In this document: positions 19,714 through 57,883 of the stretch, piece after piece
Numbering within the stretch: position 1 is the stretch's first letter
Layout: each line of letters begins with the position of its first letter
Virus record (IMG/VR): IMGVR_UViG_2974624538_000001
Coordinates: 46,771 to 110,770 of that record
Strand: one strand, 5' to 3'
Source of the DNA: a virus
Taxonomy: Duplodnaviria; Heunggongvirae; Uroviricota; Caudoviricetes
Length of the DNA stretch: 64,000 nucleotides
Program-made: the position numbers and the translations under genes
The notes under the pieces: model-generated
What the model saw: the letters and a program-made list of their open reading frames with translations, nothing else
What the model was told of the DNA's origin: nothing
Database searches by the model: none

Positions 19714-19845
19714 CTTGACTTCCAAGTCTTGGAGGTGCTACGATGGTATACAAGTTGAAGGCATTGTTCTTCAAGTTCCGCCCGGTGGTTGACAAGCTGC
19801 TGAGTAGATGGTACGTTAGAAGAACAAAGTAAGCAGCAAGCTTTC

Positions 19846-19962
19846 GGGTCGGCTGGATGAGGGTTATCTAACCTAAATTATACAACAGTCAATGGTAATT
19901 CCTGGTGGATTCCAGGGAGTGTGGTGACTATAACACTATCTCCCTCGCCTACAACATATCCG
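19846..19962 (+). ncRNA. Y RNA-like element 1
   Basis: 5' GGGTCGGCTGGATG...GGTTATCT...3' ACATATCCG shared framework; AAGCTT ends 2 nt upstream; internal hairpin TTCCTGG/CCAGGGA. Confidence 0.55.
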
Positions 19963-20064: not shown

Positions 20065-20070
20065 CTTTAT

Positions 20071-20202
20071 GGGTCGGATTCAATAGTTTAACTTAAATCC
20101 AAACCGCGTGTCCTAGGTTCGAATCCTAGTCCCGGCTTTCAAGTCGGGGTAGCTCAGTGGCAGAGCAGTGGTCATTAAAAACACTATTGAAACAACATAT
20201 CC
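20071..20202 (+). ncRNA. Y RNA-like element 2 with tRNA-like module (YrlA-like)
   Basis: 5' GGGTCGGAT...3' ACATATCC; internal T-arm CCTAGG-TTCGAAT-CCTAG and an acceptor/D-arm-like GGGGTAGCTCAGTGGCAGAGC segment. Confidence 0.55.
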
Positions 20203-20222
20203 ATGAAAAACTTAAAATTTGC

Positions 20223-20358
20223 GGGTCGGATGAATTCAGTTATCTTCCTACCATAAATCAGAAAGTCAAGGTTCGACTCCTTGAAGGGGTGAATGAGAGA
20301 GGTCTCAGCTAGCCTGAACAGTTAGTGAATCCCACTTCTGAATTCAATATTATATCCG
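20223..20358 (+). ncRNA. Y RNA-like element 3 with tRNA-like T-arm
   Basis: GGGTCGGATGAATTCAGTTATCT...CTGAATTCAATATTATATCCG terminal stem (GAATTCAG/CTGAATTC 8 bp); internal CAAGG-TTCGACT-CCTTG. Confidence 0.6.
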
Positions 20359-20368
20359 CAAAAGCTTT

Positions 20369-20462
20369 GGGTCGGATGGAAATCTTTATCATAAGTTCAA
20401 CTCTTATCATCCCCCCTCATGGGGATGGGGCGTGGTGCCCACTGGTTTACTGCAACATACCC
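20369..20462 (+). ncRNA. Y RNA-like element 4
   Basis: GGGTCGGATGG...TTTATC...ACATACCC; AAGCTT ends 1 nt upstream. Confidence 0.5.
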
Positions 20463-20468
20463 AATTAT

Positions 20469-21251: not shown

Positions 21252-21408
21252 AGCCCCTAATGATTTCGGGTCGGATGTTTCTTGGTTATCTTACTGTGAA
21301 TGAGGAGTTCTGGGTTCGAATCCCAGCGGGTCCACTCTTGGGCCTGTAGTTTAACTGGCAAAACGTAAACCCGAGGAACGCTTATATATCCGTCATATCA
21401 TTAGGGGC
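21252..21408 (+). ncRNA. Y RNA-like element 6 with tRNA-like T-arm and extended terminal stem
   Basis: core GGGTCGGATG...GGTTATCT...ATATATCCG (21268-21392) enclosed by a perfect 13-bp inverted repeat AGCCCCTAATGAT/ATCATTAGGGGCT; internal CTGGG-TTCGAAT-CCCAG. Confidence 0.6.
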
Positions 21409-22059: not shown

Positions 22060-23676
22060 ATGTCTAATGCACTTGGTAAGTTTGCTGCTTCTCAGAAGCA
22101 GGACCGTGTTTCTACTCCTCAGACAAAGCGTACCCCTGGTCGCACGGATGAGGTAAAGAACAACGCGGGCGGGTTTGTGTTCAAGGTAGACGACAAGTCT
22201 CGCCTTGAGCGATTCCTGGTTCTTGGTACTGACAAGGGTACCTACTACGTTGGTGAGCAGAAGTTGACGGCTCAGAACATTTCCTTCCTGAAGGAGATGG
22301 TCCGTAAGGATGAGCGTCTGGTCGTGGACACTGCTGTTGACGTCTCTGTAAATGGTCGTGCGCTTAAGAATTCTCCTGCGCTCTTCGCTATGGCTACGGT
22401 TATGACGGAGGGTCAGGATAAGGCTTACGCTCGTGAGGCCGTTCAGAAGGTTGCTCGTACTTCTACCCACCTGTTCGAGTACGCACAGTACATCGATGAC
22501 CTTGGTGGTTGGGGTCGTGCAAAGCGTCGTTCTGTCGCTGAGTGGTACGAGAACAAGTCTCTGGATATGCTTGCATACCAGGCTGTCAAGTACCGTCAGA
22601 GGAATGGTTGGACGCACCGTGACCTGTTCCGTCTGTCTCATCCTCAGGGTGTGGACCAGGGCGTTGGCAACTTCATCCTTGGCAAGGACGTAGAGTCTGA
22701 GGTGGAAATTCTTAAGGGCTTCGCTGAGATGCAGTCTGCGACTTCGGTCAAGGATGTTATCAGGACGCTGGAGACTTTTAGGAACCTTCCTTGGGAGACC
22801 ATTCCTACTCAGTTCCTCAAGGACGTGAAGGTGTGGAAGACTCTCTTCTACAATGGTCAGCTTCGTGGCCAGGCTCTCATTCGTAACATCACTCGACTCG
22901 CTCGAATTGGTGCGTTTGATGACATGGTTTTCGCAACTGACTACGCGAATGCAATTGCTAACCAGGAAATGATTCAGAAGACTCGTCTTCACCCAATCAA
23001 CTTCCTGAATGCGGTTGTTGTTCACGAGTACGGTCAGATTGACCGTAACGGTTACAGCATGTGGAGTGCCGGACGTAAGAAGGATTGGAAGTCTAATGGA
23101 AAGATTGTGGATGCTCTCAATGAGGGATTCCACATGGCATTCAAGACTGTCGAGCCTTCTGGCAAGAGGACTCTCGTTGCAACTGACGTTTCTGGCTCCA
23201 TGAGTCAGAGCGCCATCGGACTTGACCTTTCTTGCGCTCAGGTTTCTGCGGCTGTTGCCATGACGGTTGCTCGCACTGAGCCTTACAGTGACATTGTTGG
23301 CTTCTCTAGCAGCATTGTTGACTTGGGCATTACCGCTAAGAGTTCTTTTGCCGACGCAATGCGTAAGGTGAGTAACAGGAACTTCGGTGGTACGGATGCG
23401 GCTGCTGCAATTAAGTACGCTGACCAGAAGGGAATTCAGGTTGACACCTTCGTTGTTATCACTGATAACGAGACGTGGGGCGGAAGCCAGAAGCCTTTCC
23501 AGGCACTTAAGCAGTACCGTCAGAAGACCGGAATTGATGCGCGTCTTGCGGTTCTCGGTGTGGCGTCTACGGACTTCACCATCGCTGACCCTACGGACCG
23601 TGGAATGATGGACTTCGTTGGTTTCGATGCAAATGCGCCTAAGGCCCTCGCGGACTTCAGCGCTGGTCGTATCTGA
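22060..23676 (+). CDS. rsr: Ro60-like ribonucleoprotein (TROVE domain plus C-terminal vWA/MIDAS), Rsr orthologue
   Basis: 538 aa; TROVE-like N-terminal region; vWA with MIDAS DVSGSM...TDNETWGG; adjacent to the Y RNA-like array. Confidence 0.8.
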   Translation: MSNALGKFAASQKQDRVSTPQTKRTPGRTDEVKNNAGGFVFKVDDKSRLERFLVLGTDKGTYYVGEQKLTAQNISFLKEMVRKDERLVVDTAVDVSVNGRALKNSPALFAMATVMTEGQDKAYAREAVQKVARTSTHLFEYAQYIDDLGGWGRAKRRSVAEWYENKSLDMLAYQAVKYRQRNGWTHRDLFRLSHPQGVDQGVGNFILGKDVESEVEILKGFAEMQSATSVKDVIRTLETFRNLPWETIPTQFLKDVKVWKTLFYNGQLRGQALIRNITRLARIGAFDDMVFATDYANAIANQEMIQKTRLHPINFLNAVVVHEYGQIDRNGYSMWSAGRKKDWKSNGKIVDALNEGFHMAFKTVEPSGKRTLVATDVSGSMSQSAIGLDLSCAQVSAAVAMTVARTEPYSDIVGFSSSIVDLGITAKSSFADAMRKVSNRNFGGTDAAAAIKYADQKGIQVDTFVVITDNETWGGSQKPFQALKQYRQKTGIDARLAVLGVASTDFTIADPTDRGMMDFVGFDANAPKALADFSAGRI

Positions 23677-28884: not shown

Positions 28885-29250
28885 CTATACATTCCCCACC
28901 TGAATGTAGAAGGTAACCGAAAGTGTAAAAGTCAGCTAACTGACTGCCTGTGTAAGTGGAACGGGACTCCTCTAGCAGGGAGATTGAAACCATAGGGAAT
29001 AGCCCGTATAGACCTATGGCACCACGGACTACGATGTGCTAGCATTGGTGGTGGTTCCGGGGAAGAGTCTAGTCAACTCCAACTGGGTATTATGCAATGA
29101 GGTGTTTCACCAGTCGTCACCTTGTAAATCTAGGCTGGAGCGACTAATTTAAGTTAGGGGCGGTAAGCCCAGACCTTAAAGAATGGCCGGGATAGTGCAT
29201 CCTGTCGCGCAAGCACTCTAGAGCGTAGGCTAGTTAAACCTACGCATCAT

Positions 29251-30393: not shown

Positions 30394-30661
30394 AGGGCCT
30401 GCTTGGTTTCGACTTTGCTGGACGGGATATAGACGCAACCCTTCTTGGTCAAAGAAGTAAAACGGGCCAAAACAATAGATGCAAATTCTAACTTTGCTCT
30501 CGCTGCGTAAGTAGCCGGATTTGTCGGGAACCTTGGAACAGAATCCCGACTAGACAAAATGTGTAGATAATGTGTAAGACCCTTCAGTGTGATTGACAAT
30601 GGTTGTAGAACGGATATATGCTAGATAGTGAAGGACAGGGGTTCGACTCCCCTCAGGTCCA
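30394..30661 (+). ncRNA. ssrA: tmRNA (SsrA), tag peptide (A)ANSNFALAA
   Basis: 5' GGGCCTGCTTGGTTTCGAC and 3' GGTTCGACTCCCCTCAGGTCCA form a tRNA-Ala-like acceptor with G3:U70; internal frame GCA AAT TCT AAC TTT GCT CTC GCT GCG TAA (30481-30510) encodes ANSNFALAA-stop. Confidence 0.75.
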
Positions 30662-30678
30662 CACAGAAAGATACGGTA

Positions 30679-30852: not shown

Positions 30853-31576
30853 CAGGCAGGGTTGGAACCTGCTAGAGTATGACTAAGAGGTCAGGCAGTC
30901 GGACAAGGCTTAGGCGGATGAGAGTAGTTCAAGCGGTGGTAACTTAAATGCCCACTTAATGATGCTCAACAAGCCGGTGGGATGCGAGTGGACTAGTCCT
31001 GACCTTTTAAGCTTGCAAGGTTCAGAGCAGATTAATCGCCAACGTAGGATAGCGTAGGTTGCCTTGCAGAGGCCCGAGGAGTAGGATGTGGGTAGGCAGT
31101 CGGAGCCGTTGCGTATGCGGCGGGGTTAGCGACGTGTAGGGTCTCAAGCTTCAATCTGTGGATAACGAAAGGGGTCCGGCGTTCTGTGAACTGGCAGTCG
31201 GGTAGCCTGGCATGATACAATAAGCCTCTAGCGGGGCTAGTCACCCAAGAGTAAAGTTCATTGAGGGTGAGCAGATTGAAAACATGGTTGCGAGAGGGCC
31301 AACGGGTATGCTAAGGTGGTGTACAACACCGAAGCGCAAAGGAGATAGGGGCACCAAGTAAATGGGTGCTGTGTATCGCAACCAAGCTTTGCAGCAAGCA
31401 GGCCAAACGCTATAGACAGGGATACAAGGTTCTGAAAAGGTAACGCCCATTTGGCAGGGTAGGAAGTTACCACCTGATGATATCCATGCTGCAACTATGG
31501 AGATGACCGGAAACTTCTCCATAAGCTTCCTTCGTAAAAGCTGTAATGTAGTAAACAAAACACGAAGGGTATTAAA

Positions 31577-32458
31577 ATGGGTTACATTGTTTTCGCTAGC
31601 ATCTTCGTTCTTATTGGACTGATTGCTCTTGGAGTCGGCTTTGCCGCACGAAATGAGCCGGGAGTCCGAAGGGGAGCGTTTGGTGTAACTGCGGGAATGT
31701 TTGTACTACTTCTTGTCGTCACTGCGTTTAATTCTGTGACTAGTGTTGGCGCTCGTAATGTTGGTATTCAGACTGCTTTCGGTCGATACCAGGGAACGCT
31801 TGACAATGGTCTTCAGATTATCGCTCCGTGGTCTGAGCACGAGGACTTCTCTACTCAGATTCAGTACCTTGACCTTGATGGTGATAAGGATTCGGATGGC
31901 GCTGAAGTGACTTTCGCTGGTGGTGGTCGCGGTGTTGTGATGGCTACTCCGCGTTGGTACATTAACGAGAAGGATGCTGGTCAGCTCTGGAAGAAGTACA
32001 AGAATTTCGACAATGTTCGGGACCAGCTTGTTCAGTCTTCTGCTAAGGCTTCCTTCCGTGATGTTGTAAAGGATTACGCTCCGAATGAGGCTCTTGTTCA
32101 GACTGGCAAGATTGCCAATGAGGTGAAGGCTAACCTTGAGGCTTCTCTTGCCGACGATGGTGTTAAGATTGATTCCATCAGTATCCGAACGATTCGCCTT
32201 GATGGTCGTAGTCAGCAGTCCCTTGACAAGATTGTTCAGGCTAACAACGACATTGAGCGTGCTAAGGCTGAGCAGGAGCGGGCTAAGATTGATGCCGAGA
32301 CTGCCAAGATTCGTGAGAAGACTGGTGCTCTCAAGCCTGAGGCTCTTCAGCGTTACTGCCTTGACGTTGTGAACAACTGGGATGTCAAGAAGAATGGTTC
32401 TCTGCCCGCAGGCTTTAACTGCAACAGCAGCGTTCCTTTCACTGTTACCAACAAGTAA
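31577..32458 (+). CDS. SPFH/band-7 (prohibitin/stomatin-like) membrane protein
   Basis: N-terminal TM segments followed by an SPFH-like core (IAPWSEHEDF...IRTIRLD) and a coiled-coil tail. Confidence 0.65.
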   Translation: MGYIVFASIFVLIGLIALGVGFAARNEPGVRRGAFGVTAGMFVLLLVVTAFNSVTSVGARNVGIQTAFGRYQGTLDNGLQIIAPWSEHEDFSTQIQYLDLDGDKDSDGAEVTFAGGGRGVVMATPRWYINEKDAGQLWKKYKNFDNVRDQLVQSSAKASFRDVVKDYAPNEALVQTGKIANEVKANLEASLADDGVKIDSISIRTIRLDGRSQQSLDKIVQANNDIERAKAEQERAKIDAETAKIREKTGALKPEALQRYCLDVVNNWDVKKNGSLPAGFNCNSSVPFTVTNK

Positions 32459-35079: not shown

Positions 35080-35169
35080 GGAAGTGTGGCTGAGTCCGGT
35101 TTAAGGCGCTTCACTGCTAATGAAGTGGTTTCGTAAAGAGGCCCGCAGGTTCGAATCCTGTCACTTCCG
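35080..35169 (+). tRNA. tRNA-Ser(GCT)
   Basis: acceptor GGAAGTG/CACTTCC, anticodon arm GCTTCA-CTGCTAA-TGAAGT, long variable arm containing GGTTTCGTAAAGAGGCCC, T GCAGG-TTCGAAT-CCTGT. Confidence 0.75.
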
Positions 35170-40577: not shown

Positions 40578-41059
40578 TGTATGTCAAGGGTGACGCTACT
40601 AAGCCTCAGGGTGATGGTAAGAAGATTATCGCCCATGTTTGTAATGATGAGGGCGGATGGGGAGCAGGATTTGTTCTCGCTCTTGATAGGATGTCACCGT
40701 TGCCGCGCATTTCTTATCTCCAGGAATACAAGTATTGGACCAAGAATGAGGGTCTGACTTTCATCCCTCTTGGCCTGATTCAGGTTGTTAGCGCTGGACA
40801 TGCAAATCCTGATGTTGAGGTTTGCAACATGATTGCTCAGCACCGAACAATTCGAAATGTTCCAAAGCCTATTTGTTACAAGTCTCTTGAGGTTGCTCTC
40901 ACCCGACTTGCTGAGGAGGCTATTGAAAAGAATGCTACGGTTCATATGCCTCGTATCGGTTGCGGACTTGCGGGTGGCGACTGGAACGTGGTAGAGTCAA
41001 TCATCAACCGAACGCTAACGCTGAGGGATGTTGACGTGACTGTGTATGACCTGCCGTAA
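40571..41059 (+). CDS. Macro domain protein (ADP-ribose binding/hydrolase)
   Basis: IAHVCNDEGGWGAGFVLAL and HMPRIGCGLAGGDW macro-domain signatures. Confidence 0.7.
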   Translation: MVMYVKGDATKPQGDGKKIIAHVCNDEGGWGAGFVLALDRMSPLPRISYLQEYKYWTKNEGLTFIPLGLIQVVSAGHANPDVEVCNMIAQHRTIRNVPKPICYKSLEVALTRLAEEAIEKNATVHMPRIGCGLAGGDWNVVESIINRTLTLRDVDVTVYDLP

Positions 41060-41122
41060 TTCGGCCGGGGTTCGTAAAGAACCCCAAGCTTCATTGGTTC
41101 GTAAACAAAGGAGAAATAACCA

Positions 41123-48674: not shown

Positions 48675-48750
48675 GCTCCGGTGGTCTAGTCTGGTCTAGG
48701 ATACTTGACTCTCAATCAAGAGGACACGGGTTCGAATCCCGTTCGGAGTA
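48675..48750 (+). tRNA. tRNA-Glu(CTC)
   Basis: acceptor GCTCCGG/TCGGAGT, anticodon arm CTTGA-CTCTCAA-TCAAG, T ACGGG-TTCGAAT-CCCGT. Confidence 0.6.
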
Positions 48751-48898
48751 CAAATCGGTTCTGGTTGTATAGGGTAAAACGGTTGCAACCAATCCAGAAC
48801 TGGTCTAGGCTCAGTAGGTAACATTACGAACCCTCAATAGCCGACTCTAGACTTACAGCATGAGGGTGAATATCCAAAATGCTGTAAGATAGAGACAC

Positions 48899-48973
48899 GC
48901 CCCATTAGTCTAGCGGCCTAGGATTCCGGATTTTCACTCCGCGAGAACGTCGGTTCGAATCCGACATGGGGTA
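48899..48973 (+). tRNA. tRNA-Glu(TTC)
   Basis: acceptor GCCCCAT/ATGGGGT, anticodon arm CCGGA-TTTTCAC-TCCGC, T GTCGG-TTCGAAT-CCGAC. Confidence 0.65.
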
Positions 48974-48974
48974 C

Positions 48975-49884: not shown

Positions 49885-49970
49885 CATCGGGTCGGAGGAA
49901 AGACGGTTATCTTTCATTTGGCGAAAATCGCGGGAATGCCCGCTTTCCGTCTTCCACACCATATCCGATG
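49885..49970 (+). ncRNA. Y RNA-like element 7
   Basis: CATCGGGTCGGAGG...GGTTATCT...CCATATCCGATG terminal stem, inner stem GGAAAGACGG/CCGTCTTCC, hairpin GCGGGaatgCCCGC. Confidence 0.6.
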
Positions 49971-50047: not shown

Positions 50048-50059
50048 CGGAACGAATAC

Positions 50060-50111: not shown

Positions 50112-50309
50112 ATGGAAGAAATCGTATCCTACAGCTTTGCTGTAGACATTTACAAGAACGACTCTGGAACATTCACTTATGGTGTTTTCCAAGAGTTGGA
50201 GTCAGACGAAGAGGATGAGCTACAGTTGCTTGAGACTGGCGAGGCTGATACACTAGCCGAAGCAGCAGAGATTGCAGGACGTAGTATCAAGACTCTTTTC
50301 GCAGTCTGA
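50112..50309 (+). CDS. hypothetical acidic protein
   Basis: ORF. Confidence 0.4.
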   Translation: MEEIVSYSFAVDIYKNDSGTFTYGVFQELESDEEDELQLLETGEADTLAEAAEIAGRSIKTLFAV

Positions 50310-50351
50310 AATTTTCCGGCAAATTTTGTCGGGGGTTCGTAAAGGACCCAA

Positions 50352-50423
50352 TCCCCCTTAGTGTAATTGGCAGCACAACGGATTTTGGTTCCGTTAGTTC
50401 GAGTTCGAGTCTCGCCGGGGGAG
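50352..50423 (+). tRNA. tRNA-Gln(TTG)
   Basis: acceptor TCCCCCT/CGGGGGA (one mismatch), D GTGT-AATTGGCA-GCAC, anticodon arm ACGGA-TTTTGGT-TCCGT. Confidence 0.6.
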
Positions 50424-50447
50424 CAACCATAACAAAAGGAGAATGTA

Positions 50448-50684
50448 ATGGTTATCGCAGCAATTGTTATTTGGGTTATTGGGCTGCTCATGGCCCTTGT
50501 TGCTGGCTTCGGCTTTACGCTTGAAACGGAGCCTCACGACACGGAAGAGTTTGAGAAGTATTACAAGTCATGGGGCGGAACGCGATTCTACACCCTGTGG
50601 TTTATTGCCCTTCTCATTCTGGCCGTCATTTGGCCTATCGCCCTGGTCTCTCTTTGGATTGTCGCTCTTATCAAGGGATGGTAG
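50448..50684 (+). CDS. membrane protein
   Basis: TM helices. Confidence 0.45.
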   Translation: MVIAAIVIWVIGLLMALVAGFGFTLETEPHDTEEFEKYYKSWGGTRFYTLWFIALLILAVIWPIALVSLWIVALIKGW

Positions 50685-50685
50685 A

Positions 50686-50901
50686 ATGATTTTCCTGTGG
50701 ATTTATCTCATTGGGTTGATTGTCTGTCTCTTGGGTGGTACGGTTACAGCACTGTACGAGAAGCGCAAGTTTGATGAGAACAATGTTTCCAAGAGTGCAT
50801 GGGGTTCTATCATCCTGTATGCTGTTTGGTGGCCGCTTCTAGTGTTTCTCTATATTATTTGCCTTCCTTTCGAGATTATAGATAAGCGGAAGGGACGCTA
50901 A
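50686..50901 (+). CDS. membrane protein
   Basis: TM helices; ATG at 50686. Confidence 0.4.
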   Translation: MIFLWIYLIGLIVCLLGGTVTALYEKRKFDENNVSKSAWGSIILYAVWWPLLVFLYIICLPFEIIDKRKGR

Positions 50902-50949
50902 TGAAATGGGGGGTTCGCCCCCAAGCTTCCATTACAAAAGGAGAAGATA

Positions 50950-51405
50950 ATGGATATTCTGTTCTGGATTTGGGTAGTACCGGCCGGATTCTTCACTACA
51001 CTTTTCCTGCTGATTGTACTATTCGCATCACTGATTAACATTCAGACAGGTGCTGTTTTCGGCGGGCTTGCTATTGGAATTTTTGGTCCGCCTGTTGCTG
51101 TTGCTCTAGGTGTTCTTTGGCCGGTTACTTGGCCTCTCTTTTCCCTTCTTGGCAAGTTGGATGAAAAGCGAACCGAAAAGCGCAATCAGGAGTATGAGAA
51201 GAGACTTGCCAAGGGAAAGAATTACGGTAAGTTGATGAGGATTACCGAGAGCCATCCTCATCTTCCCGATGAGTACCTTGGCGCTATCGTAAAGATTGTT
51301 CAATGGCATGAGCCTGGAAGGCACAATGCTTATGTTGAGTTTGTTGACCAGAGCATTCGTCCTGGTCGATTCTATTGGCGACACTCCATGATGGAGGAAG
51401 TCTGA
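50950..51405 (+). CDS. membrane protein
   Basis: TM helices; hairpin+AAGCTT+AAGGAGAAG upstream. Confidence 0.45.
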   Translation: MDILFWIWVVPAGFFTTLFLLIVLFASLINIQTGAVFGGLAIGIFGPPVAVALGVLWPVTWPLFSLLGKLDEKRTEKRNQEYEKRLAKGKNYGKLMRITESHPHLPDEYLGAIVKIVQWHEPGRHNAYVEFVDQSIRPGRFYWRHSMMEEV

Positions 51406-51447
51406 TAGAATGGGACTTCGGTCCCAAGCTTCCTGAAAGGAGATGTT

Positions 51448-51747
51448 ATGGGATGGGTGTTGGCCGTTGCTATCGTTGCTGCACTATGGTACCGTAGCAA
51501 CTACAAGGGCGCGATGAAAATGTATGAGCATGAAAAGATGCTCAACCGGCTCGCTCAGGGAGAGAATTACCGCAGGCTTGTGGGATTTACTCACAATGGT
51601 AGGAAGTATGAGGCAAGGATTCGGCGCTGGAATGTTGACGAAGCCGGGCCGGATATGGCAGAGTTGTGGTGTGTCGAAGGGTCCAATCCTGACGGATGGA
51701 CTCAATTCTTTCTATGGAACAAGAGTGACCTCAAGTTTCTTGACTAA
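51448..51747 (+). CDS. hypothetical protein (N-terminal TM)
   Basis: ORF. Confidence 0.45.
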   Translation: MGWVLAVAIVAALWYRSNYKGAMKMYEHEKMLNRLAQGENYRRLVGFTHNGRKYEARIRRWNVDEAGPDMAELWCVEGSNPDGWTQFFLWNKSDLKFLD

Positions 51748-51789
51748 GAATTCTGCCCGAAAGGGCAAGCTTTATCGTAAGGAGGAAGT

Positions 51790-52038
51790 ATGACCGCTTG
51801 GATTATGGGAATCTATTTCGTTGGTTTCGGTCTCTGTTTCCTGTTTCTGCTGATGATGGCGGGGATTGGTAATAGCCCTGGCCTTGGCAGCGGACTTGGT
51901 TCTGAGGCAGTAACATTCGTAATGCTCGGTTCCTTTCTGTGGCCTGTGCTTCTTGTAATTTCAATTATGGCTGGTGGCTGGATGGCCATTAAGCGAATGC
52001 TTGGAAAGGAAAAGAATGGACTTCGTAACACTGCATGA
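51790..52038 (+). CDS. membrane protein
   Basis: TM helices. Confidence 0.45.
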   Translation: MTAWIMGIYFVGFGLCFLFLLMMAGIGNSPGLGSGLGSEAVTFVMLGSFLWPVLLVISIMAGGWMAIKRMLGKEKNGLRNTA

Positions 52039-52630
52039 AATGATTCCTCGGGCTACCGGAGATAAACTTCATGTGATGGAAATGAAGCCATATCCTAACA
52101 TTACCCTCGCCATGCCGGGAAGACATCAGAATGATACTGACCCGGTTGGCGGGGATTTTGTTGTTATGGTAGACAGTAAGTCAAAGGGGTGGGTAAAGCA
52201 TCAATTTACTCATGGTGACCTATGGCACGACCTTGAATACAAGTTTGAAACAGACCCTACCGGAGCTAAGTTTCTCATGGTAGACTATGCCAAGGTTGTT
52301 AGAGGAGAAGACCCTAATGCACGTGGATGGGATTTTCAGCGCGGCGGATTTGATGGCGAAGTTGAAGACCCGTGGGCAAAAAGCCTACATCCTCAAACAT
52401 TTTTGTACGCCGTTCAGTGCCTCGCTGTGGCTGAGCACAGACGCTACTGGAAGCATGAACGAGACGGGGGCGGAAGGTACTTGCCAGCACGCTTCTCGGT
52501 TGGTATTGTAGAAGGCAAATGGACAGCCAAGGATGCTGAAGCCTTTCAGTACCGTGGTAGACAGGGACTCGAAAATCTGATTAAGGAAAAGGGTCGTCCA
52601 ACTTCTCTAAAGAAGTTTGCTGAAGGATAA
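52016..52630 (+). CDS. hypothetical protein
   Basis: internal ATG of the 51974 ORF. Confidence 0.4.
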   Translation: MDFVTLHEMIPRATGDKLHVMEMKPYPNITLAMPGRHQNDTDPVGGDFVVMVDSKSKGWVKHQFTHGDLWHDLEYKFETDPTGAKFLMVDYAKVVRGEDPNARGWDFQRGGFDGEVEDPWAKSLHPQTFLYAVQCLAVAEHRRYWKHERDGGGRYLPARFSVGIVEGKWTAKDAEAFQYRGRQGLENLIKEKGRPTSLKKFAEG

Positions 52631-52690
52631 TTTTCTGGCAAATTTCTGAAAGGGTTCGTAAAGAGCCCTTTCAAGCTGTATACTAGACCT

Positions 52691-52960
52691 ATGAGAGATA
52701 TTTGCGAAGAACTAGCGCACTGGTTTTTGGTGCATGATTACAAATGGAAGTTTGATTATGGCCACGGAAATCCAGATGCGGATGACATTGAGGCAGTAAT
52801 CAATAGGGCAATGCAATTGCTCAGTGTTGAAGAAACAGACACCAGACTTGAAGTTGGTAGGCTAATCTTCATGAAGAATGCTGAGCTTGGTCTGGTAGAC
52901 ATTTATGTTCATGCTGGTACTATTGAGGAGAATTCACTAAATGAGGACAGCGACGTTTGA
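52691..52960 (+). CDS. hypothetical protein
   Basis: ORF. Confidence 0.4.
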   Translation: MRDICEELAHWFLVHDYKWKFDYGHGNPDADDIEAVINRAMQLLSVEETDTRLEVGRLIFMKNAELGLVDIYVHAGTIEENSLNEDSDV

Positions 52961-53363
52961 CTACACTGAGATGGCCGTAGTTGACAGCAGCTTTATTGAT
53001 GCTGTTTACTACAACACCGGGACCAGTGAACTGGCGGTTTCAATGCTTAATGGCGACACTCACTTTTACGCTGATGTCCCCGCTCGCGTTTTTTACGACA
53101 TGGTTGACGGCCCTTCCGCTGGTGCTGCCTATAACCGAGAGGTTAAGGACCAGTACACAAACATTGCGGGTGGCCCGGTCCATGAGGTACAGTTTGTTGA
53201 GCACGAGGTTGGTGTAACCAAGAGGTTCAACGTAAAGGCTGTGGTAGAATTTCAGCAGTGGTTCGATGCTGAATCTGCTGCGGACGCTGCCAGGCAAATG
53301 GAGAAGTACATGGCTCCAAACTATGGTAGTGTATCAATTACGGAGGTTAAGGAAGTTGGGTGA
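52941..53363 (+). CDS. hypothetical protein
   Basis: ORF. Confidence 0.45.
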   Translation: MRTATFDYTEMAVVDSSFIDAVYYNTGTSELAVSMLNGDTHFYADVPARVFYDMVDGPSAGAAYNREVKDQYTNIAGGPVHEVQFVEHEVGVTKRFNVKAVVEFQQWFDAESAADAARQMEKYMAPNYGSVSITEVKEVG

Positions 53364-53667
53364 GGTTCGTAAGGTCCGTACACTAACGGAACTTCACGAA
53401 ATCATGAACGACAATGATAAGGTCGTTCTCGACTTGGCCGCACCATCTTGGTGTGTTCCATGTCAGCGACTTGCACCGCATTTCGCTAAGGCTGCTGAAA
53501 AGTCAGATGCAGCATTCGTTGAGGTAGATATTGAGGATGCCGAACAGGCAATTCTTGACACCTACCCAACACAGTCAGTTCCTACTGTTTTGCTCTTGCA
53601 GAGTGGTGAACCAACTGTTACGCTTAAGGGACGCACTTCAGTGGCGCTTCTTAAGGAGATTGCATAA
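53359..53667 (+). CDS. thioredoxin
   Basis: WCVPCQ active site; proposed TTG start at 53359 after GGAGG; the longer ORF-track start at 53266 would overlap the upstream gene. Confidence 0.65.
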   Translation, partial: GEVRKVRTLTELHEIMNDNDKVVLDLAAPSWCVPCQRLAPHFAKAAEKSDAAFVEVDIEDAEQAILDTYPTQSVPTVLLLQSGEPTVTLKGRTSVALLKEIA

Positions 53668-53730
53668 TCTCAGCGGGTGTCGTAAGACGCCCGCAAGCTT
53701 CCTATAAACATACAGAAAAGGATTAGGAAA

Positions 53731-53967
53731 ATGACTGAGTTCACCGCTGAGCAGGAAGCCCAGAGCCGCGAGTTTGTTAAGACTGCTGCGCTTGCCGCTG
53801 TTCACATCAACGCCGTCAACGAGGCTGTTAAGCTCGGTGACATGGACCTTCTTCAGGGAAGTCTTGAGTTTGGTGAGAAGATTTCCGAGACGATTCTTTC
53901 TCAGATTCCTGAGGATGTTCGCATGGAGGTTCTTCTTGAACTGCTTGGTTCCGCACTGAATCTCTGA
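53731..53967 (+). CDS. hypothetical protein
   Basis: ORF after hairpin+AAGCTT. Confidence 0.45.
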   Translation: MTEFTAEQEAQSREFVKTAALAAVHINAVNEAVKLGDMDLLQGSLEFGEKISETILSQIPEDVRMEVLLELLGSALNL

Positions 53968-54015
53968 TGTTGCAGTACAATTGGGCTAGGGGAGAAATCC
54001 CCTAGCCTTTTTGTA

Positions 54016-54255
54016 TTGGAGGAAGCTTACATGTCCATTGAATCATGGGAGAATGAAGGAGGATATGTTCAAATGACTCATTCCTATTATGACCGAATGG
54101 GTTTTGAAGAGACGCATGAAGGTAGTCAGACAGACTGTCCAACCAAGCAATGTCGTAAGGAACGTGCGTATTTTCGCCGGATTCCCAGCATTGACCCTTG
54201 GCCAGATGGCTCTGGACCGTACGGCACTGACCCGTGGATGCAGGAGGGTATCTAG
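54016..54255 (+). CDS. hypothetical protein
   Basis: ORF. Confidence 0.4.
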   Translation: MEEAYMSIESWENEGGYVQMTHSYYDRMGFEETHEGSQTDCPTKQCRKERAYFRRIPSIDPWPDGSGPYGTDPWMQEGI

Positions 54256-54258
54256 AAA

Positions 54259-54753
54259 ATGCATGTGATTCCAAAATTTGAGGGAGACCACTTCTTCCTC
54301 AGCAACTTTTACCAGGCTCCCATACGTTTTGTGATGGGTGACGAGATGGTTGTCATGGAGACAGGCGAACATGCCTTCCAGGCAGCCAAGGGGAACGCCA
54401 TCCTTGACAGGCAGAAGAAAATGCGATACGTTCTTTCTGTTGCTGACGCTCCGACGCCTGCCAAGGCTAAGCATCTTGGTCGTTCAGTCAAGATAGACCT
54501 TGACTGGTGGGAGCGCATCAAGGTAGATTGTATGCGCGAGATTGTCTTTCAGAAGTTCTTGCAGAACCCTGAGCTAAGAGTGCAGCTCTTGAAGACGGGT
54601 GATGCTATGCTTGTGGAAGGAAATACCTGGGGTGATAAATTCTGGGGACGCGTAGATGGCAAGGGCTATAATAAGCTCGGTGTCATTTTGATGGAAGTGC
54701 GTGGCTACTGGTATTGGCAGTCACGTCGTAATAGCCCGGAGATGGGGTCATGA
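54259..54753 (+). CDS. NADAR (DUF1768/YbiA-like) domain protein
   Basis: FLSNFY...GEHAFQAAK...LLKTGDAMLVEGN...DKFWG matches NADAR family signatures. Confidence 0.65.
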   Translation: MHVIPKFEGDHFFLSNFYQAPIRFVMGDEMVVMETGEHAFQAAKGNAILDRQKKMRYVLSVADAPTPAKAKHLGRSVKIDLDWWERIKVDCMREIVFQKFLQNPELRVQLLKTGDAMLVEGNTWGDKFWGRVDGKGYNKLGVILMEVRGYWYWQSRRNSPEMGS

Positions 54754-54888
54754 GTCAAAGATATCGTAAGGCTCAGCGCCTTATTGCGGCCCGTCGATAT
54801 TCTCGGCGGGTTCGTAATCGGTGGCGCAAATATGGATGTTCGTGCGGAGAGCACAACATGAGAGGAAACAAATAAATAATGGGCGAAA

Positions 54889-55047
54889 AAGAGCCTAAGT
54901 TCAAGGTGGGGCAAAGAGTAAGATTCAATGGAGACACTGGTACCATTAAGAAGGTCTGGACTACAGACCCAAATATGCCAAAGTACACTGTTGATTTCAT
55001 CTTTCACACCCATGTACTGAGGGAAAATCAAATCCGAAAGGCTTGAT
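54889..55047 (+). CDS. small KOW-like protein (52 aa)
   Basis: KFKVGQRVRFNGDTGTIKKV. Confidence 0.35.
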
Positions 55048-55320
55048 ATGTGTTGTTGTGAATGCTGCAAGCGGAATAAAAATACCTTTTCTGTCGGAGA
55101 TGTCATTCACGGATTCTGTGGTGGTCATTTCGGTCGGGATTCCTATTCTTGCAAAAAGGTAGAATATATTGGTCCCGACTATATTGTATTTCGAATCCTG
55201 AACGATTGGGGTGCGGGTGGGGTAACAATCTATTCAGGCACTCAAGAGGAAATCTACAACGACCTGTCAGAATACATGGAGAAGCAAGACTCTGAGTATT
55301 ATGAGACTTGCGATTGCTAA
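55048..55320 (+). CDS. Cys-rich hypothetical protein
   Basis: MCCCECCK start. Confidence 0.35.
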   Translation: MCCCECCKRNKNTFSVGDVIHGFCGGHFGRDSYSCKKVEYIGPDYIVFRILNDWGAGGVTIYSGTQEEIYNDLSEYMEKQDSEYYETCDC

Positions 55321-55427
55321 AAACTTTGAGGGTAGCTCTTGACAAGCTACCCTCAAGCTCGTTAGACTAGAAAAAGAATAAAACAAGTTATAGCAAAGAG
55401 AAGAATATATAGAATAGGTAATATATT

Positions 55428-55616
55428 ATGACTATCTCAATGGTGGTTCTCTTCGGTATTGCTTTGGTTGTCTGTCTTGCAAAGGATGGTTTGGGCAAGT
55501 TCCATGCATTCATTGCGGTTATGTTTGGACTATACCTTGGTTCTACTGGTGTCGGTCCTTCCCTGAAGGAAGGCACGGAGAACTTTTTGGGCTGGATTAG
55601 TCAGATTCAGTTCTGA
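55428..55616 (+). CDS. small membrane protein
   Basis: two TM helices. Confidence 0.4.
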   Translation: MTISMVVLFGIALVVCLAKDGLGKFHAFIAVMFGLYLGSTGVGPSLKEGTENFLGWISQIQF

Positions 55617-55684
55617 TTTTCTGGCAAATTTTCGAAGGGGTTCGTAAAGGACCCTTTCAAGCTTCCACGATAAAGGAGAGGAAA

Positions 55685-56332
55685 ATGCGAGAGTATTCGA
55701 AGACCGAGAACCTTTACAAGCGTAATCCTAAGAACAAGTCTCAGCTTCTTGTCGGAGAATACACCCGGCCGGAATTCAATCACATTGTTTCTTGGTGGGT
55801 TACCGAGAAGGTTGATGGCACTAACGTCCGTCTTTGGTTTGATAAGGACGAGAACAGTAATTACGGTGGGCGCACTGACAATGCACACTTCAGCCCTGTT
55901 CAGCAGGAATTCATGGAGAATCTGCGGGATTCCCTGAAGGACAAGGCTGTCGCTCTCATTCATGAGTTTGGAATTGATGAGCTGCTTATCTTTGGTGAGC
56001 TTTACGGCCCGAAGATTCTTTCTGGTGGTAACTATTCTGAGCGTCTGGAATTCCGGGCGTTTGACATGATGGTCAACGACAAGGTATGGTTGGCACCTGA
56101 TGCAGTGAACAAGAACGCTGAGCGTCTTGGTGTCGAGATGGTTCCTTATCTTGGCATGATGACCACTGCACAGATTTTCTTTATGGTTGCTGGTGGGTTT
56201 AAGTCCACCTTTGCTCGTAACAGGGATTTCGATGCTGAGGGTGTTATTGCTCAGCCTGCGGTAAATCTGTATGACCAGCGCGGAGAGCGTGTTAAGTTCA
56301 AGTTGAAGACAAAGGACCTGAAGCATGTGTAA
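55685..56332 (+). CDS. ATP-dependent nucleic-acid ligase-family nucleotidyltransferase (second RNA/DNA ligase-like enzyme)
   Basis: motif I WWVTEKVDGTNVRLWF (KxDGxN); 215 aa minimal nucleotidyltransferase. Confidence 0.5.
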   Translation: MREYSKTENLYKRNPKNKSQLLVGEYTRPEFNHIVSWWVTEKVDGTNVRLWFDKDENSNYGGRTDNAHFSPVQQEFMENLRDSLKDKAVALIHEFGIDELLIFGELYGPKILSGGNYSERLEFRAFDMMVNDKVWLAPDAVNKNAERLGVEMVPYLGMMTTAQIFFMVAGGFKSTFARNRDFDAEGVIAQPAVNLYDQRGERVKFKLKTKDLKHV

Positions 56333-56403
56333 TCATTGTAGGCAAACAACTGCTTACGTCAAAATTCTTGACCGTAAGTATGCCAATGGAATCGCAAAGG
56401 TGA

Positions 56404-56622
56404 GTGAAAATTACAATGGCTGAGATGCCCGAAGAGATGAAGAACCTTGGTGCCCTTATCGCAGTTTCCAAGATTATTGAGGTTTTCGGTAACCTCTGTG
56501 ATGCTGCGGAAAAGGCCACTCCTGAGGTTAAGGCTTTCGTAAAGCCTTTCCAGGATGAGGTTGAGAAGTCAGCAGAGGCCCTTGAGGCTCTGTTTGGCAA
56601 GGGTTTTATGGACCCTAAGTGA
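56404..56622 (+). CDS. hypothetical protein
   Basis: ORF. Confidence 0.4.
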   Translation: MKITMAEMPEEMKNLGALIAVSKIIEVFGNLCDAAEKATPEVKAFVKPFQDEVEKSAEALEALFGKGFMDPK

Positions 56623-56666
56623 AATTGGGCGGGTTGTTCGTTGACCCGCCAAGCTTTGGAGGAAAC

Positions 56667-56867
56667 ATGGCTATTTACAAGTATGAGATTACTGTGGTAG
56701 AGTCAGAGCGTGGTTGGGGCAGAGACTCTTGGACTGAAGAGTTTGACACTCCAGAGAAGGCTCAGGAACGCATTGATGAAATCAATGGAAGGAATAAGCC
56801 TGGTCCTGCTCCCGATTATTACATGCAAGCATATGCAGAAATCCGGGCGGTTCGTAAGGAGGCGTAA
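56667..56867 (+). CDS. hypothetical protein
   Basis: ATG after hairpin+AAGCTT+GGAGG. Confidence 0.45.
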   Translation: MAIYKYEITVVESERGWGRDSWTEEFDTPEKAQERIDEINGRNKPGPAPDYYMQAYAEIRAVRKEA

Positions 56868-57011
56868 TGGCTGGAAAACTACCAGGACATAAGTGGAAGG
56901 TAGAAGGCTCAGACAAAAACAAGTCGGCATTTATCTATAAGTGTAATAGGTGCGGATGTGTTACACTCAGTGGCGAACCGCTGCCAGCACCGTATGACAA
57001 GACATGCTAAC

Positions 57012-57041
57012 TTGACAACCAACGAGAAAGGTTGGTAGTAT
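57012..57041 (+). promoter_or_regulatory. sigma70-like promoter TTGACA-N18-TAGTAT with palindrome CAACCAAC/GTTGGTAG
   Basis: seen in the intergenic region. Confidence 0.45.
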
Positions 57042-57215
57042 CTGACCATGAGATACGACGTTAGGAAAGACCCAAATGACGACACACAGTGGGTTATCTG
57101 GGATACTGTAGAAGAGCGCGTTTTTGCCCGGTATAGTAATCCAGATGAACCTCAGGCTATCGTTGACAAGTATCATGCTGCACAACTAGCAGCAGAAGCA
57201 AAGGGAGAGTAATAC

Positions 57216-57593
57216 ATGGTTGAGTACAATACTACATGTATTGTTGGTGGTACCAATATTCTTTGTGACCTTAAGTTTGATAAGAAGGTTCCAGCAGAAG
57301 TGAGCTTTACATTCCATGTGGAAGAGGATAAGTCCCCTGAATGGATTTTTTCTCGTGAACTTCTCAAGGATGCCATGAATGCTGATGGCGTTTCTGGTCA
57401 TGGAGATGTTGCATTTTATGACCACGGAGATGCAATCAGTATGCTCTTGCGCTCTCCTGAAGGAACTGGCCTTGCGATTTTTCAGCGGGGTGTTATTAAG
57501 GAATTCGTAAACGATATCTACAGTGAAGTTCCTGATGACTCGCTAAACCTCAGTGATGATGAGCTGAGCGAATGGCTTGACGGTTTGGTTTAA
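57216..57593 (+). CDS. hypothetical acidic protein
   Basis: ORF. Confidence 0.45.
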   Translation: MVEYNTTCIVGGTNILCDLKFDKKVPAEVSFTFHVEEDKSPEWIFSRELLKDAMNADGVSGHGDVAFYDHGDAISMLLRSPEGTGLAIFQRGVIKEFVNDIYSEVPDDSLNLSDDELSEWLDGLV

Positions 57594-57798
57594 TAAGCTC
57601 TTGGGGGTACAATGGACTCAGGAGGCAAGAATGGATTTGAATTTCAGCATGAACCCAGGTCTAGAAGTTTGGCTAGGCATTCTCCCACCACAGTGGGATG
57701 AAGATGATTTCGATGATTGGGAGGAAGAGGAATTCAAGGTAACCCAGAAGCGCCGAATCATTAATATTCGTAAGTCAGATTTCCGGCGAAATTTCTGA
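57577..57798 (+). CDS. hypothetical protein
   Basis: ORF; 3' end overlaps the 50-bp repeat. Confidence 0.4.
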   Translation: MTVWFNKLLGVQWTQEARMDLNFSMNPGLEVWLGILPPQWDEDDFDDWEEEEFKVTQKRRIINIRKSDFRRNF

Positions 57799-57883
57799 GG
57801 GGTTCGTAAAGAGCCCTTGCCCCTTCGGGGGCAAGCTTCCAGAGGGTTGACACAAGGTCCCCTCTCGTCTAAGGTGGTTGATA

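Follow-up and report, generated by a model that had tools for sequence, protein, structure and literature searches.

The stretch of DNA analysed here (the window, 64,000 nucleotides) was identified by megablast as part of Streptomyces phage Gilson (NC_048742.1, 128,338 bp; Gilsonvirus, Loccivirinae, Stanwilliamsviridae) and covers record positions 46771-110770, so that a window position equals the record position minus 46,770; positions given below are those of the window unless the record is named. Gene coordinates were taken from the deposited annotation for the whole Gilson genome, and all genes of the window lie on the + strand, among them 31 tRNA genes and one transfer-messenger RNA (tmRNA) gene. 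A preliminary description of this DNA had drawn attention to a hairpin-forming repeat between genes and had suggested that it serves as an operator with a terminator for a co-regulated gene set. The repeat itself is real and non-random: its core, GGGTTCGTAAAGRRCCC, has five exact matches (41068, 50333, 52652, 55638 and 57800), all on the + strand, compared to 0.03 expected, and no further core copies were found elsewhere in the 128 kb Gilson genome. As had been described, the copies are tied to stop codons; all five are intergenic, lie on the coding strand and begin at or a few nt past a stop codon. A 5′ arm, TTTTCYGGCRAAWTTY, is present at 50312, 52631, 55617 and 57779 and nowhere else in Gilson.

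The repeat occurs at five gene junctions (J1 to J5), and a diverged relative occurs at a sixth (J6). At J1, between gp168 (hydrolase) and gp169 (RIIA), the copy spans 41051-41091 and consists of the hairpin GGGGTTCGTAAAGAACCCC (41067-41085) followed directly by AAGCTT (41086-41091); this site had been taken, as 41070, for a shorter variant, but it contains the full core at 41068, preceded by an arm unlike that of the other copies. At J2, between gp191 and tRNA-Gln, the copy (50311-50349) comprises the arm (50312-50327) and the hairpin (50333-50349) without any AAGCTT, whose place is occupied by the gene for tRNA-Gln(UUG) (50352-50424), the hairpin ending 2 nt upstream of it. The J3 copy, between gp198 and gp199 (52631-52678), has the arm at 52631-52646, an extended hairpin at 52648-52672 (core 52652-52668) and AAGCTG at 52673-52678, and the J4 copy, between gp206 and the RNA ligase gene gp207 (55617-55664), has the arm at 55617-55632, an extended hairpin at 55634-55658 (core 55638-55654) and AAGCTT at 55659-55664. 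At J5, between gp213 and gp214 (57779-57838), the arm (57779-57794) and the hairpin (57800-57816) are followed by a second, generic hairpin, GCCCCTTCGGGGGC (57819-57832), and only then by AAGCTT (57833-57838). The arm sequence TTTTCYGGCRAATTT is common to the four copies J2-J5 and is lacking at J1 and J6. Thus, the (TTTC)AAGCTTCC that had been proposed as a shared 3′ part holds only for 55659, since at 57833 it stands after the second hairpin, at 52673 the word is AAGCTG, and the copy at 50333 has no AAGCTT at all; the AAGCTT directly abuts the family hairpin at J1 and J4.

At J6, between the thioredoxin gene and gp202 (53673-53700), the hairpin GCGGGTGTCGTAAGACGCCCGC has a GUAA loop and is followed by AAGCTT at 53695-53700. 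This site (53675, GCGGGTGTCGTAAGACGCCCGC plus AAGCTTCC) had been listed as a variant of the repeat, and it does belong to the family, not as a full copy but as a diverged orthologue of the full copies found in the related phages Kenrey (L008:14123) and Francob (L009:13195), which carry ...TTTCGTAAAG... at this junction. The other proposed variant, at 53362, lies within the coding overlap of gp200 and the thioredoxin gene, folds poorly and is probably a chance occurrence. Two further observations concern the sequences that follow the copies. Downstream of the J3 hairpin, the segment 52673-52693, AAGCTGTATACTAGACCTATG, which is the same in Faust and TunaTartare (two phages of another genus), contains a −10-like TATACT 7 nt before the gp199 ATG and no Shine-Dalgarno sequence, suggesting that the gp199 mRNA may be leaderless. 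After J5, a sigma-70-like promoter (TTGACA, 17 nt, TAAGGT; 57847-57875, + strand) was read from the sequence.

Several simple origins of the repeat were examined and rejected. The proteins encoded on either side of the copies show no mutual similarity (best E about 0.5); with no paralogues among the flanking genes, the repeat cannot be explained as a duplicated 3′ untranslated region (UTR). A coding or read-through peptide across the arm was rejected because the arm lies in three different frames at J2, J3/J4 and J5. A host-derived or widespread bacterial element was likewise rejected, as the 17-mer gave 103 scattered single matches in 596 Gb, where about 280 were estimated by chance, and only 2 of the 103 were in Streptomyces; in IMG/VR, its matches were mostly on contigs of BE-type phage size.

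We then compared Gilson with MeganTheeKilla, Kenrey, Francob, Moab and SparkleGoddess (76% identity between Gilson and SparkleGoddess) and with Faust and TunaTartare of the other genus, Faustvirus, whose genomes are mostly unalignable with those of Gilsonvirus at the DNA level. A covariance model made from the Gilson copies and searched against the relatives yielded 21 strong matches in six phages (Gilson and five relatives), all on the + strand and at the same junctions, plus weaker extra copies. A search of the rest of the genome and of relatives had been set beforehand, and it found the repeat kept at the same junctions in six Gilsonvirus genomes and its central 9-mer in Faustvirus; the repeat is therefore neither absent from related genomes nor placed without regard to genes, because it is conserved in relatives and biased to stop codons and gene junctions. 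The six core pairs were paired in 102 of 102 cells (21 copies, 17 distinct), and the only substitutions in the core stem were U-A to U.G exchanges in either direction or G-C to G.U, which remain paired in the + sense RNA but would not be in its complement. In the stem extension, covariation is seen at the first pair (AU 5, GC 5, GU 4, UA 1), and the J4 extension covaries in SparkleGoddess. The 9-mer TTCGTAAAG (UUCGUAAAG) is invariant across the 21 copies. Covariance models from Rfam gave nothing overlapping any copy, either at gathering score or at E<=1 with relaxed filters, so that a known RNA family was rejected, as was a T-loop mimic, the fifth loop position being U, not A. The repeat is thus a conserved + strand RNA hairpin located just after the stop codons of five or six Gilson genes.

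In Faustvirus, the same 9-mer is found at J2 (before tRNA-Gln), at J3 (before AAGCTGTATACT) and at J5 (followed by a second hairpin and AAGCTT), but there it is flanked by CC(C)T...GGG, and the most stable fold uses a different register with a CGU loop instead of the GUAAA loop. Since the 9-mer is kept at the same junctions in another genus despite this different pairing register, the sequence itself appears to be read, and the repeat is under a double constraint: it must fold as a hairpin and it must keep its 9-nt sequence. The arm, as TTTTC(N)GGC, lies 23-24 nt upstream of the 9-mer at J2-J5 in both genera. The junctions differ in how they are maintained. The J1 family hairpin is kept in Francob and Moab, while in SparkleGoddess and Faust a GAAA-loop hairpin stands in its place and the AAGCTT is retained; the J2 arrangement is the same in MeganTheeKilla, Kenrey, Francob, SparkleGoddess, Faust and TunaTartare; at J3, AAGCTGTATACTAG is kept in Faust and TunaTartare; the J4 family hairpin is exchanged for a generic one in Faust; and the two-hairpin architecture of J5 is kept in Faust and TunaTartare. 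In both genera the J5 AAGCTT belongs to a generic hairpin of its own, so the family hairpin must do something that a generic hairpin does not. In addition, a lineage-specific TATGGCA is common to the J2 and J4 arms of SparkleGoddess. This shared change, the invariant 9-mer and the fixed distance of the arm together point to one sequence-specific trans-acting reader, and binding of a sequence-specific factor at the copies of this sub-class seems most likely from these sequence patterns. The register change would be compatible with a reader of single-stranded RNA, with an antisense RNA or with a reader of double-stranded DNA. With a shared trans-acting factor, some co-regulation of the flanked cassettes is plausible. 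In Faust (L014 29312) and TunaTartare (L129 29996), a further occurrence of the 9-mer TTCGTAAAG lies 3′ of an AAGCTT and overlaps the next gene's Shine-Dalgarno sequence (…TTTCGTAAAGGAGCACAAATG), so the 9-mer can occur in a 5′ UTR context too.

A DNA-level reading is closest to the operator that had been proposed. According to it, TTCGTAAAG and the arm TTTTC(N)GGC 23-24 bp upstream would make up a two-part operator, or else a promoter recognised by a modified or alternative RNA polymerase holoenzyme, superimposed on the hairpin. The 9-mer is indeed invariant even though the pairing register differs between genera, the arm-core spacing is fixed within +/-1 nt in both genera, and the copies precede functional groups (rIIA/B; tRNA-Gln with a membrane-protein block; RNA ligase). 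The same genome also offers a precedent for promoter boxes inside hairpin loops. Near-consensus TTGACA-N17/18-TAnnnT promoters were read at approximate −35 starts 17484, 19438, 24865, 27720, 38043, 45698 and 48599, and further ones of the same type at 55339, 57847, 59482, 61980, 62724 and 63430; in several, the −35 box lies inside an intercistronic hairpin loop and AAGCTT lies in the spacer, resembling the terminator/promoter overlap of the promoter-early stem-loops (PeSLs) of T4-type phages. However, no repeat copy scored in the promoter scan, and neither half of the proposed site resembles sigma-70/HrdB or extracytoplasmic function (ECF) boxes; by inspection no acceptable match to a sigma-70, ECF or sigma-54 consensus was found in the arm and core, and such a promoter was rejected. 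No sigma factor or repressor is annotated in the seven genomes viewed, J1 and J6 have no arm, J5 has behind it a hairpin and then a sigma-70-like promoter of its own, an odd arrangement if the copy were itself a promoter, and every stem substitution keeps the RNA pairing. The existing evidence, namely the G.U-only substitutions and the UNCG/GNRA loop bias of the wider hairpin class described below, is at the level of RNA and points to a transcript hairpin, and nothing positive supports a DNA-level reading of the invariant 9-mer. We therefore treat operator status as unproven and the DNA-site explanation as distinctly unlikely.

The preliminary description had overlooked a wider pattern: the repeat is one sub-family within a punctuation of the form hairpin plus AAGCTT that extends across the genome. 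The Gilson genome contains 90 AAGCTT sites, and 47 of them have a hairpin directly 5′ on the + strand, compared to 13% at random positions; when all AAGCTT were listed, most had a stable hairpin directly before them and a ribosome-binding site after them. In the non-structural block (record 47-120 kb), 51 intergenic sites fall in 13.8 kb (3.6 expected), with about 10 in roughly 59 kb of coding DNA. Exact AAGCTT was present in 43 of 81 gaps between two coding sequences in this block, in 2/20 gaps leading from a coding sequence to a tRNA, and in none of the 16 leading from a tRNA to a coding sequence, the 18 of the structural module or the 12 at the right end. The consensus of the mark is a stem ending in C, then AAGCTT, then CC or G, and among single-mismatch variants of AAGCTT 24 of 29 differ at the sixth base, leaving AAGCU nearly invariant. 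Intergenic hairpin loops on the + strand included 17 of the UNCG and 16 of the GNRA type, against 2 of the reverse-complement types, and since the loop types are biased to the + strand, selection on the hairpins acts at the level of RNA; the strand asymmetry of folding energy of the generic hairpins was not significant (Wilcoxon p=0.86), so that loop type is the informative measure. Between Gilson and SparkleGoddess, AAGCTT is kept at about 35 orthologous junctions, where hairpins are compensatorily substituted or replaced (UUCG for GAAA or the reverse). The word is enriched in other relatives as well (52 vs 12.7 expected in SparkleGoddess, 67 vs 12.8 in Faust and 59 vs 12.7 in TunaTartare), and an unbiased count showed AAGCTT to be by far the commonest hexamer after strong hairpins. 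At some sites the ribosome-binding site abuts the motif (AAGCTTAGGAGG), leaving no space for a downstream promoter, and where a junction does contain a promoter, its TTGACA is in the hairpin loop and AAGCTT occupies the spacer that leads to the −10 box; for both of these reasons, AAGCTT has no fixed promoter role. The searchable literature on BE-cluster phages contains no mention of hairpin + AAGCTT marks or of the repeat. The mark is previously undescribed and separates about half of the early and middle genes, and the repeat forms a special sub-class of it.

Whole-gene indels between Gilson and SparkleGoddess have both breakpoints exactly at a hairpin/AAGCTT(CC). These include J4 (55664), J6 (53700, after thioredoxin), record 112042-112276 and record 118525, and in relatives extra genes are found directly after J1, J4 and J6, which suggests cassette shuffling by recombination between marks. 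These data could also be read to mean that the repeat is a functionless recombination linker or hitch-hiker, one generic-hairpin "allele" homogenised by PeSL-like shuffling between junctions. The indel breakpoints and the extra genes would fit, as would the presence of a generic hairpin instead of the family one at J1 in SparkleGoddess and Faust and at J4 in Faust, and the TATGGCA shared by the SparkleGoddess J2 and J4 arms could be taken as a sign of concerted evolution. We nevertheless give this reading little credence. Two mostly unalignable genera have an unchanged 9-mer at J2, J3 and J5, where neutral sequence would have decayed, J5 keeps the family hairpin besides the generic one, and the flanking genes are not paralogues; moreover, a role in recombination is compatible with a molecular function and is no substitute for one.

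The positions of the tRNA genes bear on what the mark may do. With tRNAs called de novo, a small tetraloop hairpin was found to end 2-3 nt before the mature 5′ end of 12 of the 27 Gilson tRNAs (8 of them exactly 2 nt), and hairpins ending 2-6 nt upstream were found for 4/11 tRNAs in SparkleGoddess, 5/16 in Faust and 4/7 in MeganTheeKilla, the random expectation for a hairpin at a gap of 0-6 nt being 9.8%. AAGCTT was present within 45 nt upstream of only 1 of 61 tRNAs in the four genomes. The tRNA gene therefore replaces AAGCU(U) wherever a tRNA follows the hairpin. The 5′ end of a tRNA is the cleavage site of RNase P, and because tRNAs with this site occupy the equivalent position after the hairpin, AAGCU(U) is suggested to be a cleavage signal as well; a putative cut at AAG/CUU would leave a 3-nt hairpin tail, comparable to the 2-3 nt at tRNAs.

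Overall, we favour, as a possibility just short of probable, a reading in which the marks act as intercistronic RNA punctuation, each combining a 3′-end hairpin with a processing site, and in which the repeat adds a site for a sequence-specific factor. The repeat would be a cis-acting RNA element in polycistronic + strand transcripts, and in the generic mark a short hairpin of high stability, its loop mostly a UUCG or GNRA tetraloop, would be followed immediately by single-stranded AAGCU(U). The transcript would be cut endonucleolytically 2-3 nt past the hairpin, by RNase P where a tRNA begins and elsewhere within AAG/CUU by a nuclease that is either of the RNase E type or otherwise specific for AAGCU; RNase E is no more likely here than a dedicated phage nuclease or some other reader. 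The upstream message would keep a protective 3′ hairpin, and the downstream cistron would be freed with a short leader and its ribosome-binding site. The 4-6 copies with TTCGTAAAG would represent a specialised sub-class, with a hairpin, the invariant 9-nt sequence and, in four of them, the 5′ arm at a fixed distance, that binds one trans-acting factor and so places processing, stability or read-through at a few junctions under joint control.

Several points weigh against this reading. The cleavage is entirely inferred. Mycobacterial RNase E cleaves single-stranded RR/CNU (PMC10641625), and AAG/CUU, lying outside the hairpin, fits this motif at −2, −1, +1 and +3, but the U-preferred +3 position is the most variable one (24/29) and +2 never varies, which is the reverse of the motif's prediction; AAGCU is also far more constrained than the degenerate RNase E preference, and that preference is documented in mycobacteria, not in Streptomyces. 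The Faustvirus register shift (a CGU and not a GUAAA loop) argues against a structure-specific RNA-binding protein and fits a double-stranded DNA reader equally well. No candidate factor was identified, and the motif GNCGAAN0-1G of the RNA-binding protein Ro60, which the phage encodes (see below), is unmatched in the repeat. Finally, hairpins without a U-tract reportedly terminate transcription in the actinophage phiC31, according to work by Ingham et al. from 1995.

This last point leads to the terminator that the preliminary description had proposed. The idea finds no support in the copies themselves: none has a T-tract, and neither the five copies nor J6 were picked up in a terminator scan, the tails being AAGCTT, AATCCC, TTTCAAGCT and TTGCCC, whereas textbook terminators with hairpin and T-tract occur elsewhere in the phage, in the structural module and at 50058 and 53983. 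It is nonetheless conceivable that the hairpins, including the repeat, are terminators or attenuators without a U-tract that damp read-through, AAGCTT then being an enhancing or pause context or unrelated. The hairpins are stable, GC-rich and directly after stop codons, the stem-loops of PeSLs are experimentally effective terminators (PMC2839356), and the interspersed sigma-70-like promoters, several with the −35 box in a hairpin loop, make re-initiation available. Against this, the phage uses U-tract terminators elsewhere; there are about 45 sites in 73 kb, most of them without a promoter before the next ribosome-binding site, and efficient termination would silence the downstream genes. Attenuation also explains neither the invariance of AAGCU nor the replacement by tRNAs with a precise 2-3 nt spacing, and we consider it unlikely.

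Antitermination of the lambda nut type was weighed as well, with the arm as boxA and the GUAAA (GNRNA) pentaloop hairpin as boxB, together loading a phage factor for read-through. The Gilsonvirus repeat resembles nut in having a conserved single-stranded arm, a spacer and a 6-bp hairpin with a C-G-closed pentaloop of GNRNA type, in its RNA-level pairing signature and in its position directly after stop codons (and at J5 directly before another hairpin); lambda nutR sits after cro. It differs in that the arm TTTTCYGGCRAATTT is unlike a boxA of the CGCTCTTTA type, and in that Faustvirus lacks the pentaloop, its most stable fold placing UUU and AAA in the stem. Whereas nut sites occur one per operon, the repeat has five or six sites in 17 kb; the arm is missing at J1 and J6, and no N-, Q- or other antiterminator is annotated in the seven genomes, which is weak evidence given that the annotations are incomplete. 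This explanation seems very doubtful.

A candidate structured non-coding RNA was noted at 48808-48842 (+ strand), between tRNA-Glu(CUC) (48675-48751) and tRNA-Glu(UUC) (48899-48974). It has two stems with two covarying pairs and a 13-nt loop with an invariant 10-nt core, CAUUACGAAC, which is kept in all relatives and identical in Faust; the element is conserved far better than the surrounding genome, at >=91% in 20 phage records from several genera, and it is neither called as a tRNA by ARAGORN nor present in Rfam. This element is a candidate processed small RNA. Its loop, CAUUACGAAC, is complementary to (G)UUCGUAA of the repeat and could pair with 7-10 nt of the hairpin apex, so that the UUCGUAAAG hairpins might be targets of a phage small RNA freed from the tRNA-Glu spacer by tRNA processing, which would adjust how the transcripts of five or six cassettes are processed or how stable they are. 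We regard this as a long shot. The complementarity is statistically weak (one of about 20 near-matches, about 13 expected by chance), covariation is uninformative on the pairing with both loop and 9-mer invariant in all genomes where they were found, and an extra GGG:CCC pairing between spacer and hairpin in Gilson is uncompensated in Faust.

Ro60 was considered as well. The protein gp106 (22060-23676) is a Ro60 orthologue (TROVE E=1.5e-36; Ro60 vWA E=3.4e-56), and just upstream of it are matches to the Y RNA-like RNA YrlA at 20080-20193 and 21307-21364 that are sub-threshold (30.8 and 27.4 bits; gathering score 69). The phage probably has a Ro60/Y-RNA module, and two RNA ligases and a polynucleotide kinase are encoded beside it. 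The published Ro60-binding helix has a GNCGAAN0-1G or GGUCCGA-type 5′ strand (PMC4201824), and a Ro60-binding site in the repeat was rejected by inspection, because in GGGUUCGUAAAG G and C are separated by two U, and CG and AA by one U. A direct repeat, TTTCGGGTCGG(C/A)TGG...GGTTATCT(A/T)AC, is present in three copies (19842-19872, 21264-21294 and 49885-49915); AAGCTT precedes the copy at 19842 as well as a related TGGGTCGGATGG at 20368 that does not belong to the three. Two of these copies are near the YrlA-like matches, and the repeat may represent a 5′ stem in Y-like RNAs or some other signal.

A tRNA had also been linked to the repeat, through the variable arm of tRNA-Ser(GCU). The match is real in Gilson, where GGTTTCGTAAAGAGGCC (35127-35143, + strand) agrees with the core at 15 of 17 positions and is the only match added in the window when up to 2 mismatches are allowed. 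The same tRNA has GAACCCTAAAAAGTTC in SparkleGoddess and GAGTGTAAAAGCTC in Faust, and because the likeness is absent there it does not represent a conserved link; a variable-arm mimic or tRNA fragment was rejected as the likeness is lineage-specific and the arms of SparkleGoddess and Faust are unrelated. Elsewhere in the tRNA region, the Gilson tmRNA (30395-30664) is short (about 268 nt) and encodes the tag ANSNFALAA, and the Faust tmRNA is annotated with a different tag, ANSKNASAYALAA. This region contains three long non-coding gaps, at 30853-31577 (724 nt), which follows the tmRNA and a small open reading frame, 20066-20468 (403 nt) and 28886-29250 (365 nt), and no tRNA or Rfam match at gathering score explains any of the three.

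Among known systems, the marks can be compared to the PeSLs of T4-type phages (Arbiol et al. 2010, PMC2839356; Comeau et al. 2014, PMC4122927). Both are conserved stem-loop motifs located between the stop codon of one gene and the start of the following one, in the plastic, non-structural region of a large phage genome, both coincide exactly with indel breakpoints between relatives, as in Gilson and SparkleGoddess, and some Gilson elements have a TTGACA-N17/18-TAnnnT promoter overlapped by the stem-loop. However, a strong sigma-70-like promoter defines PeSLs, whereas no repeat copy has one and most Gilson marks lack one; PeSLs lack the AAGCU(U) word and the alternation with tRNAs and have polyG/polyC stems in contrast to the UNCG/GNRA tetraloops of Gilson, which is a siphovirus of a Gram-positive actinobacterium. 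Cluster M mycobacteriophages, as summarised in PMC7953290, carry conserved repeats CR1-CR4, with stem-loops upstream of CR3/CR4. They too are tRNA-rich actinobacteriophages with short repeats between many rightmost genes, and inserted genes bring a repeat copy with them (PMC7953290). They differ in host and lineage, and CR3/CR4, compared here by description only, have no known relation to AAGCTT or TTCGTAAAG.

Structured elements between cistrons define cleavage points in the tRNA punctuation of mitochondria and in the processing of bacterial operons by RNase E and RNase P. The Gilson tRNAs and hairpin + AAGCUU marks resemble these in alternating at equivalent positions with the same 2-3 nt spacing; they differ in that cleavage in Gilson is a proposal, that RNase E has a far less specific preference than the Gilson motif would imply and that most marks are not tRNAs. 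As set out above, the likeness to nut is limited by the lack of boxA similarity, the several copies per region and a pentaloop that is not conserved in Faustvirus. Stoperators and start-associated sequences of mycobacteriophage clusters A and K are, respectively, repressor DNA sites or located at ribosome-binding sites, occur in temperate phages and have no hairpin requirement. The Gilson repeat is like them in being a short, asymmetric intergenic repeat in one orientation relative to transcription that has been proposed to co-regulate many genes, but it shows RNA pairing and follows the upstream stop codon.

Taken together, the repeat is best described as a specialised member of a variant form of intercistronic RNA punctuation, and its description as an operator with a terminator is only partly right. 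The junctions that carry it, including those of rIIA/B, RNA ligase, thioredoxin and the tRNA-Gln block, are probably under one common factor. Loccivirinae (clusters BE1/BE2) are large, tRNA-rich Streptomyces phages with about 190 mostly unknown genes on one strand, and the marks provide a testable transcript grammar for them: stop codon, tetraloop hairpin, AAGCU(U) or tRNA, ribosome-binding site. The marks also stand at the points where genes have been gained or lost, a link between expression architecture and the modular evolution of the genome that PeSLs provide in T4-type phages too. If the marks are cleavage sites, they would be a bacterial-virus counterpart of mitochondrial tRNA punctuation, would give one further rationale for the tRNA genes scattered among protein genes, and could serve as portable insulator or processing parts for Streptomyces synthetic biology.

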